DNA of 64,000 nucleotides from a virus. The notes below the pieces were generated by a model. That model was not told where the DNA came from. It did no database searches and saw only the letters and a program-made list of their open reading frames with translations. Numbering within the stretch: position 1 is the first letter of the stretch; each line of letters starts with the position of its first letter. Made by a program: the position numbers and the translations under genes. Positions 2,559-39,962 of this stretch are shown piece after piece. The stretch is taken from positions 32,001 to 96,000 of the IMG/VR virus record IMGVR_UViG_3300029319_007985; one strand, given 5' to 3'.

Positions 2559-3215
2559 ATGGAAAATTGGGAGAGGCATCTAAATAGAATTTGGAACGGT
2601 GGTAAACTGTTCATCATTGGTGCAGTGGTTTTATTCATTACATTTACTTTGGGCACATTTAAACCGAACAAACATGTAGTAAACAACATAAAACTTGATC
2701 AAGAACAAAAAACAATTAATAACCTTAAAAAATTTGGTTTACATGCACCTTTGTTTAAATTTAAAAATACAAAACAGTTTGTTGAAAACGTTCAAAACTG
2801 TGTAAACTACTTGAACCTTACAACTGAAGTCCATAAAAGAATACCTGACAAAATAATAATTGCAATGGCCGATGTGGAAAGTGCAAGTGGCACTAGTCGT
2901 TTTGCAACTGAAGGAAACGCCTTGTTTGGTGTTAGAACTTGGGACCTAGTAAACGTTCCACACATGAAACCTGGTGCAATACCAAATGCAAGTTTTGGTG
3001 TGAAGAAGTATAAGAATAAATGTGCCAGTGTTGCAGATGTAATAGACATATTAAACAGGCATCCTGCTTACAAAGATTTTAGGGCAGAAAGAAACAAACA
3101 ACTTAAAGACGCATATTGGGACTATAAGAAACTGGTTCCTTTACTTGCACCATGGAGCACCAACCCTGAGTACGGTAATATCATTCTGAGAAGAATGAAA
3201 GAGTTGAAATTGTAG
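2559..3215 (+). CDS. Membrane-anchored GH73 glucosaminidase (Bax/FlgJ-like peptidoglycan hydrolase)
   Basis: N-terminal TM helix; [25 protein letters not shown] and WSTNPEY motifs; start moved to ATG 2559 past the hairpin. Confidence 0.75.
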
Positions 3216-3231
3216 TAAAATAAGTACTACG

Positions 3232-4665
3232 ATGCAGGACGTACTTCAAAAAACACTAGATAAAAAATACCAAGCAGGGTTTACCACCAATGTGGAGTCG
3301 GAAACTTTACCACCAGGTCTAGATGAAAATACAGTAAGAAAGATTAGCAAGATCAAAAATGAACCGGAGTGGTTGCTAAAGTTTAGATTGAAAGCATTTG
3401 ACAGGTGGAAAATTTTAAAAAAGCCTGATTGGGCAAATTTAGAAATAGAACCAATAGACTATCAAGCAATTAGTTACTATTCAGCACCAAAAAAAGGACC
3501 AGCATCATACGATGAAGTTGATCCAGAGATCAAAAAGGACTTTGAAAAATTAGGAATACCTCTCCATGAAAGAGAAAAACTAGCAGGGGTGGCGGTAGAT
3601 GCAGTTTTTGATTCTGTGTCTGTGGCTACAACGTTTTCAGAAGAATTGAAAAAATTAGGTATAATCTTCTGCAGTTTTAGTGAAGCGGTACAGAACCATC
3701 CTGAACTTGTGAAAAAGTATTTGGGTTCGGTTATTCCAATCAGTGACCATAGTTTTGCGGCCTTGAACAGTGCAGTATTTACAGATGGATCATTTGTGTA
3801 TATTCCACCAGGTGTGAGATGTCCTATGGAACTGTCAACGTATTTTAGAATAAATGCGGCCAACACTGGACAATTTGAACGAACACTTATAATAGCAGAT
3901 CGAGACAGTTATGTAAGTTATCTAGAAGGATGTACAGCACCTATGAGAGATGAGAACCAATTACATGCGGCCAATGTGGAACTGGTTGCTTTGGACAACG
4001 CAGAAATAAAGTATTCAACCATACAGAATTGGTATCCAGGAGATCCTGAAACAGGCAAGGGTGGTATCTATAACTTTGTTACAAAAAGGGGAAAATGTAT
4101 TGGAAAGCATTCAAAGATTACATGGACCCAATTTGAAACAGGTTCGAGATTAACTTGGAAATATCCAAGTTGTATTTTGATGGGTGACAACAGCATTGGT
4201 GAATTTTACAGTGTGGCTCTTACTAATGGCCGACAACAGGCCGACACAGGAACCAAAATGATACACATAGGTAAAAACACTAAAAGCACAATCATATCAA
4301 AAGGCATTAGTGCAGGTAAAAGTTCCAACACATATCGAGGACAGGTCAGCATAATGAAGAGGGCAATTAACAGTAGAAACTTCACTCAGTGTGATAGTTT
4401 GATGATGGGATCCGGATGTAGTGCTTCAACTGTGCCTGTGATACAAAATAGGAATAGCAGTTCAACCTGCGAACACGAAGCCACCACTAGCAAATTAAGT
4501 GATGAACAGATGTTTTACTGTATGCAGAGAGGCATACCAACCGAAGACACAATCAATATGTTGGTCAGTGGATTTTGTAAAGAAGTTTTCCAGAAACTAC
4601 CAATGGAGTTTGCCGCGGAGGCAAATAAACTACTAGAAATTAGTATGGAAGGTTCCGTAGGCTAA
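3232..4665 (+). CDS. sufB: Fe-S cluster assembly scaffold SufB
   Basis: [52 protein letters not shown] motifs; full length 477 aa. Confidence 0.97.
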
Positions 4666-15327: not shown

Positions 15328-15430
15328 CTGTGCTAAAAGCATAGTGGGAAAGTGACGTGAAATTCGTCCACATTACTTGATACGGTCATAGTCCGAATGC
15401 CACCTAGCACAGGACAGAGCAAGGAGACTC
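15328..15430 (+). ncRNA. class II (AdoCbl-variant / env8-like) cobalamin riboswitch
   Basis: CTGTGCTA/TAGCACAG closing stem, AGTGGGAA, GACGTGAAATTCGTC T-loop, TACTTGA loop, CCGAATGCCACC B12 box, P13 GAG-CAAGGAGA-CTC holding the RBS; precedes a BtuB-like gene. Confidence 0.9.
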
Positions 15431-15432
15431 GA

Positions 15433-17262
15433 ATGATGAGATTAGTTCTTATGTTAATCTTGGTGTGGACATCTATCGCACACGCCAAAACGGAAAGTTG
15501 CAGTTGGGACAACGACGTTCCATGTGTCGTAATATCCAAACCAAATACAAATTTAATAAATGAAAAGGTGTCACCCAGCACGGTGATCACACAAGAACAA
15601 ATCAAAAAACATAATCTTTTGGACCTTAAAAGTGTTTTCAAGTTCCTCAACAACACAATTGCCGTGCAGTCAGGACCTACTGGACAACAGGCATCAGTTT
15701 TCATGCGAGGTACAAACAGCAACCACACACTAGTGTTATTGAACGGAATACCTATCAACGATCAAAGCACCACCAATGGTGCCTTTGATTTTGGACAAGA
15801 CTTCCTTTTCAACGTGCAAAGAATAGAAGTATACAAAGGTGCCGCTGGCGCACACTTTGGCGCTGACGCTATAGGAGGTGCAATAAATTTAATAACTGAC
15901 ATCGACTATCAAAATAACTTTTCAATAACAGGACATAACAATAGTAAGACCATAGAAGGAAACTATGCCTCTGAATACAATGGTTGGCAGTTTAACGTCA
16001 AAGGTGGATTGCATCAGTCTGAAACACAGTCGGCTCTAAAGGGAGGAACTGATCTTGACGGGACAAAAAATAAATCATGGACCGCAAGTGTAGTTAAATG
16101 GTTCAACGAAAAATTAAAATTTAGATCGAACCTCTTTACAAGAAATACTTTTAGTGATCTGGATGGCCATTCATTGGCCCTGCAAAATGGATATGACAGC
16201 GACAACAATCTTTATGCCTTCCAAACTGGGTTTGACTACTACACTAAAGACAGTCTCAGTTATGTCACACTGCACACCCATGGATATGACAGAGAGTACA
16301 ATAGTCCAGGCAACGAGTTCGACAACTATGAATCTGACGCCTACGTATTAAGAGCAGAACATAAAAAATACAAAGATGGGCCTTTCAAGTATGGACTAGG
16401 ATTTGAATACAAATACGATGTGGCCACGTTCACCAACAACGGATCATACAACAGCACATTGGATGGGGACTATGATAACATAGGACTATTTGTTAATTTT
16501 GGATATGAGTTCGACAACTGGGCAACCACGTTGAATCTAAGAACAGATGACAACAACCTCATAGGTAACAACGACAGTTACAAATTTGGGATATTAAGAC
16601 AGGACATATTGCCAAATCTCGATGTAAGTTTCAGTCGTGCAGAAGGGTTTAAAAATCCTAGTCTGTATGAAATGTTTGGTGCTGACAACTACGGATACAA
16701 AGGCAACATGGATTTGACAGCAGAAAACAGTATCCTCAACGAAGTCACGTTCGACTATGGTATTGACAAAAGCAAATACTCTTTGACATTGTTTAGAAAT
16801 CAAATAACAAACATGATCGAATACAGTTATCCAACATACAAAAACAATAGCACTGACTCTCTGGACCAAAGCGGAATCGAATTGTCCTACTCCTACAACG
16901 GAGATAAAAATAATTTCACCATTTGGGCAAACAGTCTCAGTAGTGAGAAAGGCAACAATTCAGCGCAGTTGAGGAGACCTGAGCATAGCATTGGTTTCAA
17001 TTATGAAAGGGTAGTCACCAACACATGGAGTTACTATGCAAACTACAACTTTACAGGCGAACACCATGACATACACAACAGTAATTGGAGCACAATTACC
17101 ATGCCCGACACCCACTTGCTTGATATAGGTATAACAAAAAATTACTATGGAATCGATTTAGGTTTAAGTATTAGCAATGTTTTCGACCAAGACTATGAAC
17201 AACCACATGGATTTAGTCAGGATGGAAGAAAAATTAATTTTATACTTAAACGTAGGTTTTGA
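15433..17262 (+). CDS. btuB: TonB-dependent receptor, BtuB-like cobalamin transporter
   Basis: Signal peptide from ATG 15433; plug motifs SVFMRGTNSNHTLVLLNG, RIEVYKG, FGADAIGGAINLIT; C-terminal NVFDQDY...F; under cobalamin riboswitch. Confidence 0.88.
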   Translation: MMRLVLMLILVWTSIAHAKTESCSWDNDVPCVVISKPNTNLINEKVSPSTVITQEQIKKHNLLDLKSVFKFLNNTIAVQSGPTGQQASVFMRGTNSNHTLVLLNGIPINDQSTTNGAFDFGQDFLFNVQRIEVYKGAAGAHFGADAIGGAINLITDIDYQNNFSITGHNNSKTIEGNYASEYNGWQFNVKGGLHQSETQSALKGGTDLDGTKNKSWTASVVKWFNEKLKFRSNLFTRNTFSDLDGHSLALQNGYDSDNNLYAFQTGFDYYTKDSLSYVTLHTHGYDREYNSPGNEFDNYESDAYVLRAEHKKYKDGPFKYGLGFEYKYDVATFTNNGSYNSTLDGDYDNIGLFVNFGYEFDNWATTLNLRTDDNNLIGNNDSYKFGILRQDILPNLDVSFSRAEGFKNPSLYEMFGADNYGYKGNMDLTAENSILNEVTFDYGIDKSKYSLTLFRNQITNMIEYSYPTYKNNSTDSLDQSGIELSYSYNGDKNNFTIWANSLSSEKGNNSAQLRRPEHSIGFNYERVVTNTWSYYANYNFTGEHHDIHNSNWSTITMPDTHLLDIGITKNYYGIDLGLSISNVFDQDYEQPHGFSQDGRKINFILKRRF

Positions 17263-38914: not shown

Positions 38915-39220
38915 ATGTTTGAAAATATAAAAGAAAATGAAATAATTGCACTAAAATTTTCCACAGGAGAAGAAGTGTTGGCCACGTTTAAAAGAGAAGA
39001 CAACATGACGATTTCAATCGTGAAAGGCCTTGTTTTGATGCAAGGTCCACAGGGTATAGCACTTGGAACCTTTTTTAGTACAGCAGATCCCGAAAAAGAA
39101 ATAGCATTGAACAGAAATTTAATACTCAGTGCCGCGGAACTTAATCCTAAACTTAAAGACCAATACAATAATGTTTTTAGTAAAATAAAAACACAACCTA
39201 AACCATCAATTATTACATGA
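38915..39220 (+). CDS. hypothetical phage protein (Sm-like fold candidate)
   Basis: LKFSTGEEVLA pattern; TTGACA-16-TATAGT promoter at 38882-38909. Confidence 0.6.
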   Translation: MFENIKENEIIALKFSTGEEVLATFKREDNMTISIVKGLVLMQGPQGIALGTFFSTADPEKEIALNRNLILSAAELNPKLKDQYNNVFSKIKTQPKPSIIT

Positions 39221-39453
39221 AGTCAAAACACAAAAAAGCAATAATGTGTTTGGTAGACACAACAGAAGCAATACTAAATGTTTTCCAAAAACATAAGATT
39301 AATCCTGATAAAGTTGCTGAACATTATGAATTCAAGGTTTTGGTTCATTTACTGAAAACAATAATTGATGGACAGTCTGGTATACCAAATTCATTACACG
39401 AAAAATTGAAAGATTTAGATCTTGACAAAACACCTAGTCATACAGTACACTAA
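39217..39453 (+). CDS. hypothetical protein
   Basis: Coupled ORF. Confidence 0.55.
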   Translation: MKSKHKKAIMCLVDTTEAILNVFQKHKINPDKVAEHYEFKVLVHLLKTIIDGQSGIPNSLHEKLKDLDLDKTPSHTVH

Positions 39454-39457
39454 CACT

Positions 39458-39502
39458 AGAGGACTTTAAGACAATCATCCCTCTTTAAACATTCTGCTTG
39501 TC
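39458..39502 (+). ncRNA. candidate preQ1-I-like H-type pseudoknot leader of queD
   Basis: AGAGG(39458-62)/CCTCT(39480-84) stem; loop GACAA(39470-74) pairs with TTGTC(39498-502); RBS AAGGAG at 39507. Confidence 0.5.
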
Positions 39503-39518
39503 ATCAAAGGAGAAAAAG

Positions 39519-39962
39519 ATGGCATACTATTCAAGTAAAACATATGATCACAATGAAGGACTAAGTTGCGCTTTCAGGCAGTGGAAAGCAACACACAGTC
39601 ATTGCCGTTGGATTCATGGATACGCACTTGCAGTAAAGTTGACTTTCGGTTCCCACAAACTTGACGATAGAAATTGGGTGCAGGATTTTGGAGGCTTAAA
39701 AGACATCAAGTTATGGTTGAAACAAATGTTTGATCATACTTTATGTATTGCTGAAGATGATCCGGAACTGGACAAATTCAAAGAATTACATGCAAAAGAT
39801 TTATGTGACTTAAGAATTGTTCCTGCTGTAGGTTGCGAAAAATTTGCTGAACTGATCTACAATCACGTAAGTAAGATTGTAAACAACGACAGAATATGGT
39901 TAGAATCTGTCGAAGTCAAAGAGCACAGCGGCAATGGAGCAGTATTTAAAAGACAAAATTAA
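39519..39962 (+). CDS. queD: 6-carboxy-5,6,7,8-tetrahydropterin synthase / PTPS family
   Basis: HSHCRWIHGY, WVQDFGGLK, FDH, VGCEKFAE, VEVKEH; start ATG 39519 after AAGGAG. Confidence 0.85.
   Translation: MAYYSSKTYDHNEGLSCAFRQWKATHSHCRWIHGYALAVKLTFGSHKLDDRNWVQDFGGLKDIKLWLKQMFDHTLCIAEDDPELDKFKELHAKDLCDLRIVPAVGCEKFAELIYNHVSKIVNNDRIWLESVEVKEHSGNGAVFKRQN

Follow-up and report, generated by a model that had tools for sequence, protein, structure and literature searches.

A 45-nt H-type pseudoknot in front of a phage queD gene and a hairpin that competes with it for one strand form a conserved two-state RNA element, the reality of which is close to certain. Judged from comparative sequence analysis and computed folding, the element is likely to be a metabolite-sensing, phage-specific riboswitch that would turn translation of queD on. 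It was found in a window of 64,000 nucleotides (the whole stretch of DNA analysed), which is part of a 172-kb fragment of a marine jumbo phage, estimated to be 47% complete. The initial annotation had placed here a promoter, the pseudoknot helices P1 and P2, their junction, a Shine-Dalgarno (SD) sequence and the ATG of queD, with the pseudoknot beginning at the predicted transcription start; on re-check all positions, including the 45 nt of the pseudoknot, were as claimed. The features of the leader are the following.

39422-39427, plus strand: σ70 -35 hexamer TTGACA, within the final codons of the upstream ORF
39446-39451, plus strand: σ70 -10 hexamer TACACT, spaced 18 nt from the -35 hexamer
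39458-39502, plus strand: the whole H-type pseudoknot, 45 nt
39458-39462, plus strand: P1 5' strand; G5 and 39480 make the floor pair; pairs 1 and 3 covary
39463-39469, plus strand: L1; first base variable, then invariant C and U, then 1-6 variable nt
39470-39474, plus strand: P2 5' strand; pairs 2, 4 and 5 covary
39475-39479, plus strand: junction UCAUC; C-A probably extend P2, and the C at 39479 is at the preQ1-I specificity position
39480-39484, plus strand: P1 3' strand, with the P1 covariation
39485-39492, plus strand: L3, 8 nt; A invariant at positions 3, 5 and 7
39493-39497, plus strand: near-invariant UCUGC, kept in 161 of the 162 listed cores
39498-39502, plus strand: P2 3' strand, the putative switching strand
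39499-39505, plus strand: 5' arm of the sequestering helix, overlapping the P2 3' strand
39507-39512, plus strand: SD sequence AAGGAG, in the loop of the sequestering helix, 4 nt past P2
39518-39524, plus strand: 3' arm of the sequestering helix, running from base -1 over the start codon through codon 2
39519-39962, plus strand: queD-like 6-carboxytetrahydropterin synthase gene, 147 aa, CxxxHGY motif, ATG at 39519

The promoter overlaps the final codons and the stop of an upstream ORF (39217-39453), and transcription is predicted to start at about 39457-39458, i.e. where P1 begins. The queD product belongs to Pfam PF01242 (PTPS; E 8.7e-17) and PHROG 2389 (QueD-like), and it scores below the NCBIfam QueD cut-off. 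Taken alone, the single copy is not beyond chance, because its folding z-scores were near 0 and a geometry-only descriptor found three such 5 + 5 bp pseudoknots in the window. The observation is taken as real because of family-wide conservation and not on one-copy statistics.

When protein-based and pattern searches were combined, at least 225 distinct leaders with at least 162 distinct cores were found. Among 80 viral loci fetched by QueD homology alone, 32 carried the pseudoknot element, and a covariance model separated these clearly (36-71 bits) from all else (22 bits or less). Of the 225 leaders listed, 218 stood ahead of a QueD with E<1e-5, and the remaining seven were cut off, preceded a distant QueD or had a gene inserted ahead of queD. 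The link to QueD was thus exclusive among the readable listed leaders, across four QueD subfamilies, the three minor ones being 22-32% identical to the window protein. The GC content ranged from 33 to 54% across the family. Of the 188 longer loci, 170 had two or more additional genes in common with the window genome, which places the element in a single broad assemblage of large, uncultured phages. A search of 185,579 prokaryote genomes gave one exact-pattern match, on a 6-kb phage-like MAG contig that shares three genes with the window phage. By blastn the motif was absent from cultured phages, and by the covariance model it was absent from four of them with related genes (Phosso, Paride, Vibrio 2.275.O and Motura); the model likewise gave no second copy in the window genome or in five relatives. 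Weak model matches (12-21 bits) in L012-L018 lay antisense within a coding gene and were discarded, and about half of the loose-pattern matches were chance hits with neither P1 pairing nor queD. In one locus (L340) an unrelated 137-aa gene lies between leader and queD and uses the leader and its start codon as its own; the queD frame comes after the end of this gene. In another (L023) the motif (2487-2531) leads a canonical-type QueD with CxxLHGH; a second QueD, of CxxxHGY type, lies directly 3' (3001-3483) and has no motif of its own.

Both pseudoknot helices proposed in the initial annotation showed strong covariation among the phage queD leaders. Because MAFFT misplaced the 5' end (L1 varies in length; L068 was misaligned), the counts for P1 come from a gap-free subset and from a hand-anchored parse, and those for P2 from all 109 hand-anchored cores. 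In the gap-free subset 98.7% of the pair cells were paired, double-sided changes numbered 55 versus 16.5 in shuffles, and slid pairing registers collapsed. Among the 109 hand-anchored cores, the third P1 pair was A-U in 55, U-A in 41 and C-G in 13, and the fifth P2 pair was U-A in 67, C-G in 31 and A-U in 5. A QueD-tree-aware analysis of 496 column pairs, of which only the ranking was used because the protein tree may not track the leader, gave its top four places to two pairs from P1, one from P2 and, from the sequestering helix, sp3/-1.

The unpaired bases were conserved as well. L3 was 8 nt long in 109 of 109 cores parsed with free length, and its invariant adenines would make minor-groove contacts. 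The specificity C was present in every core, also in searches leaving that position free, and was preceded by U in 108, C in 30 and A in 24 of the 162 listed cores; in the same cores position 6 in L1 was A in 109, U in 43 and C in 10, and position 7 was always C. When junction and UCUGC were left free in a scan, all listed queD-preceding matches kept both, except for the compensated leader L260. As a check for bias, the 27 protein-found cores gave the same consensus. The C-A of the junction can pair with the U-G of UCUGC, adding two pairs to P2 past a U.C mismatch, and in L260 an A-U to G-C double change, a single event, preserves this pairing; P2 is probably extended by two pairs, which the initial annotation had not noticed. 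The U-C of UCUGC facing the specificity C is a candidate pocket.

The promoter ahead of the pseudoknot is also a trait of the family: a σ70 pattern was found in 93 of 212 listed upstream regions versus 0.65 in shuffles. The distance from the end of the -10 hexamer to P1 is 6-8 nt in 66 of these 93, and the mRNA is therefore likely to begin with the aptamer.

The P2 3' strand, together with the three bases that follow it, can pair with the stretch from base -1 to base +6 of the reading frame. Each of the seven consecutive pairs of this sequestering helix was in register in 104 to 114 out of 114 leaders, and U-A/A-U and C-G/U-A swaps occurred; tree-level covariation was absent at pairs P2b1/+7 and P2b4/+4. 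The AUG was predicted to be paired in 216 of the 223 listed leaders, and AUG or SD in 221 of them, with a median of -9.3 kcal/mol; the AUG was paired in 46% (-3.0 kcal/mol) of motif-less queD genes and in 32% (-2.5 kcal/mol) of other genes of the window genome, which served as controls. Codon 2 began with GC or AC behind 220 of 223 listed leaders, compared with 14 of 38 motif-less queD genes and 20% of the ORFs in the genome, and this start was kept even where the downstream gene had been swapped. Leaders in which the helix misses the AUG aim the same strand at the SD (L067, L068, L158, L294 and L350; L147 is borderline). Opening the ribosome site of the window copy was computed to cost 5.5 kcal/mol and only 0.9 kcal/mol once the aptamer strands were withheld. 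The drop was at least 2 kcal/mol in 173 of 223 listed leaders and smaller in the other 50; in members with a long spacer part of the hairpin persists without P2, and the median opening cost was still 4.7 kcal/mol. In one full-leader ensemble the sequestering helix named above had a pair probability of 0.43 in the window copy, where other occluding folds compete. Many long-spacer members (e.g. L050, L089 and L100) carry a conserved hairpin extension between P2 and start codon, which has an asymmetric A-rich internal loop and covers the SD too; this extension might bind a protein or serve for tuning.

Since P2 and the sequestering helix are mutually exclusive, stabilisation of the pseudoknot by a ligand would turn on queD. 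Feedback repression is therefore not favoured; the initial annotation had missed the covarying helix between P2 3' strand and start codon. No terminator-like site was seen at the locus, and the SD lies outside P2 in all listed members, 3-28 nt away and more than 10 nt away in over half. A counterpoint to the ON reading is that in the window copy 4 nt separate P2 from the SD, and preQ1-I pseudoknots, once folded, can repress over distances of up to 10 nt (PMC11625349).

In the mechanism that we propose, transcription would start at P1 and the RNA would fold either as the H-type pseudoknot or as a hairpin that buries the start codon (or, in certain lineages, the SD); both folds draw on the P2 3' strand. 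Without ligand the hairpin would win (duplex about -8 versus -4 kcal/mol) and queD would stay untranslated, this default state being an estimate because nearest-neighbour energies cannot score a pseudoknot. A ligand with a guanine-like Watson-Crick face would bind at the P1/P2 junction, pairing with the invariant C that precedes the 3' strand of P1 and, probably, with an invariant U of UCUGC. The bound ligand would lock P2 and thereby free the initiation site. The switch would probably serve to let dihydroneopterin triphosphate into the FolE-QueD-QueE-DpdL route, and hence into DNA modification, only while the pool that folate synthesis also uses is ample.

The leader has the general marks of a riboswitch, i.e. 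a covarying, aptamer-like 5' structure, an expression platform that excludes part of the aptamer (by computed and comparative evidence) and a link to one function. No relevant Rfam family matched at the locus, elsewhere in the window or at 18 other motif loci. This included preQ1-I, -II and -III, in line with the variant aptamer of the initial annotation; for preQ1-I (RF00522, gathering score 39 bits) scores stayed below gathering, with no match at the locus at E up to 10, nor at the 18 others. Like preQ1-I, the phage motif is a very small H-type pseudoknot located 5' of a que gene, with a 5-bp P1 on a G5-C floor, an invariant C just before the P1 3' strand that is mostly preceded by U as in type I, and an A-rich L3. 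The specificity C and the G-C floor are found in preQ1-I types I-III (e.g. C. antarcticum, B. subtilis queC, T. tengcongensis and E. coli), in which U6 and an L3 adenine read the other edge of the ligand (N9, and N2/N3, respectively), and all preQ1 classes covered by the same 2024 review repress (PMC11625349). The phage motif, in contrast, has no conserved U6 or UU atop P1; by sequence mapping, its L3 is followed by Y-U-C before the extended P2 and not by the ligand-contacting A. Its P2 of 5 bp plus the probable 2-bp extension never holds the SD, it would be wired ON via the start-codon hairpin, and it occurs in phages and not in bacteria, with no match to RF00522. Judged on these features, it is not a member of preQ1-I, from which it departs on four points of membership.

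The THF-II riboswitch (folE motif) is similar in that it controls a gene at the dihydroneopterin-triphosphate node and reads its ligand by C and U between two stacked helices (PMC9881143), but it is a rod-like two-helix hairpin that represses folE, whereas the phage motif is a pseudoknot before queD. THF-II gave no Rfam match, and the covariance model found no second copy of the phage motif before folE in the window genome. PreQ1-II and preQ1-III also read a guanine-like ligand by C and U in a pseudoknot before queuosine-related genes; unlike the simple 45-nt H-type fold, they are HLout pseudoknots with extra helices and U-A-U triples, and they repress. Like the phage motif, the pseudoknot of T4 gene 32 mRNA sits in a phage leader and sets translation of the downstream gene; it is a protein nucleation site for autogenous repression and has no switching helix, and we know of no sequence likeness between the two.

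The window genome encodes FolE, QueE, a DpdL-signature protein with relatives in phages ACP17 and phiST, and ThyX. Of the companion genes named in the initial annotation, folE and queE were present and dpdA has a candidate with a weak TGT link; queC was not found. The candidate is a 480-aa protein with homologues in PA5oct/Paride-type jumbo phages, for which the link to TGT comes from a language-model search alone and is a lead (AlphaFold without alignment, pLDDT 33). A 7-deazaguanine cluster without queC lies outside the window at G000 C1:125213-138962 (L088) and contains this TGT-like candidate, a DpdL-motif protein, a glycosyltransferase, galE, folE, queE and, beside folE, genes for GMP reductase, a phosphoribosyltransferase and a purine permease. 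No QueC over cut-off was found in the window genome and five motif-bearing relatives (two of the six genomes being complete), and four of the five relatives have a DpdL-like gene, so CDG or 7-deazaguanine, destined for DNA, is the likely end of the route, and preQ0 and preQ1 would play no part in it. Modification of tRNA, an option raised earlier, became less likely, as the virus fragment has no tRNA genes and the DpdL and TGT-like genes point to DNA.

Further features of these genomes were recorded. A class II cobalamin riboswitch (RF01689, 84 bits; window 15330-15410, plus strand) is the second riboswitch in the window phage and precedes a TonB-dependent receptor gene (15433-17262), which is followed by thyX. 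The 4-mer AGCT is missing from the whole genome G000 (0 versus about 543 expected on both strands; the 4-mers next in rarity reach 0.57 of their expected number), which suggests restriction-site avoidance. Outside the window, G000 has a permuted (two-piece) tmRNA gene (C1:26051-26425) with a ribosomal L7/L12-like ORF nearby; we take the tmRNA as a hint at an alphaproteobacterial host.

The ligand was argued from pathway logic, and its binding is a candidate only. ON switches in front of an enzyme most often sense the substrate of that enzyme, which makes dihydroneopterin triphosphate, the precursor shared with folate, the favoured ligand. If the element is a riboswitch, a reduced pterin (dihydroneopterin triphosphate, its dephosphorylated form, CPH4 or THF) has about an even chance of being sensed. 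Guanine or GTP is a clearly weaker candidate, ranked second because DpdA would release guanine and because purine genes lie beside folE. A 7-deazaguanine (CDG, DG, preQ0 or preQ1) is unlikely, and any other compound is less likely again. With P2 extended the specificity C faces an invariant U, and THF-II reads reduced pterins and 7-deazaguanine by C plus U (PMC9881143; PMC6800512). Of the earlier proposal of a variant aptamer that tunes 7-deazaguanine supply, the variant nature held, in that the motif is not a preQ1-I member and is probably linked to 7-deazaguanine; preQ0 as ligand lost ground since QueC was not found in the motif-bearing phages. We regard it as possible, with less than even confidence, that this is a phage-only class in which a re-purposed preQ1-I-like scaffold senses dihydroneopterin triphosphate or another intermediate for which no RNA sensor is known, and turns QueD on.

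Other explanations of the conserved leader were weighed against the riboswitch. Phages do use pseudoknot operators, T4 gene 32 being an example, and a protein (QueD, FolE, a TGT-fold protein or a ribosomal protein) might flip the switch by binding the invariant loop bases of an element that occurs once per genome and always before the same enzyme. However, one and the same leader stands before members of four QueD subfamilies and, in one case, before an unrelated inserted gene, QueD binding to the pseudoknot would mean positive feedback, and the conserved core maps on the position of a known small-molecule pocket, so we consider such a translational operator unlikely; the diversity of the QueD proteins also makes the QueD autoregulation suggested in the initial annotation less likely. 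Alternatively, the leader could be a ligand-free folding timer in which the nascent pseudoknot permits brief translation and then relaxes to the stabler start-codon hairpin. P2 can indeed form before the AUG is transcribed, the hairpin is the stabler helix, and kinetic translation windows are known in phage MS2. For a timer the helices would suffice, yet about ten unpaired bases are invariant, the spacing is fixed, and GC content varies between 33 and 54%; as the strict QueD link is also left unexplained, we find the timer quite improbable.

Still less probable is a divergent preQ1/preQ0 repressor, in which the bound pseudoknot would hinder ribosome loading indirectly, as in type I preQ1-I. 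P1, the G5-C floor and the UC before the P1 3' strand are as in that type, and the 4-nt gap of the window copy is within reach of such indirect occlusion (up to 10 nt; PMC11625349). On the other hand, position U6 is a U in only 43 of 162 listed cores, U-C stands in place of the L3 adenine ahead of P2, RF00522 has no match here even at E 10, and in over half of the listed family the SD is beyond that reach. An OFF ligand would moreover merely toggle between two OFF states, because the alternative state buries the AUG, and the six motif-bearing genomes, two of them complete, contain no QueC over cut-off. A fold that arose by chance, or as a side effect of conservation of the promoter and ribosome site, would fit the unexceptional single copy, but double-sided changes in three helices amid variable flanks and a variable L1 length leave it practically no probability, and the covariation counts refute it. 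The metabolite-sensing ON riboswitch thus remains the preferred reading.

No published description of the motif was found in a search outside of which lay the supplements of Weinberg 2017 and of the 2023 viral structured-RNA survey. McCown et al. 2017 found riboswitches to be very rare in phages and suggested that these may use classes still undiscovered (PMC5473149), and the present family, with hundreds of 45-nt copies nearly absent from bacterial genomes, is a concrete candidate for such a class. If it binds a pterin or purine, it would bring a new ligand specificity and reversed polarity to the preQ1-I scaffold. If the proposed reading is true, the element would be a first sign that 7-deazaguanine DNA modification in phages is metabolically regulated, the virus rationing a precursor shared with folate into the modification of its DNA.
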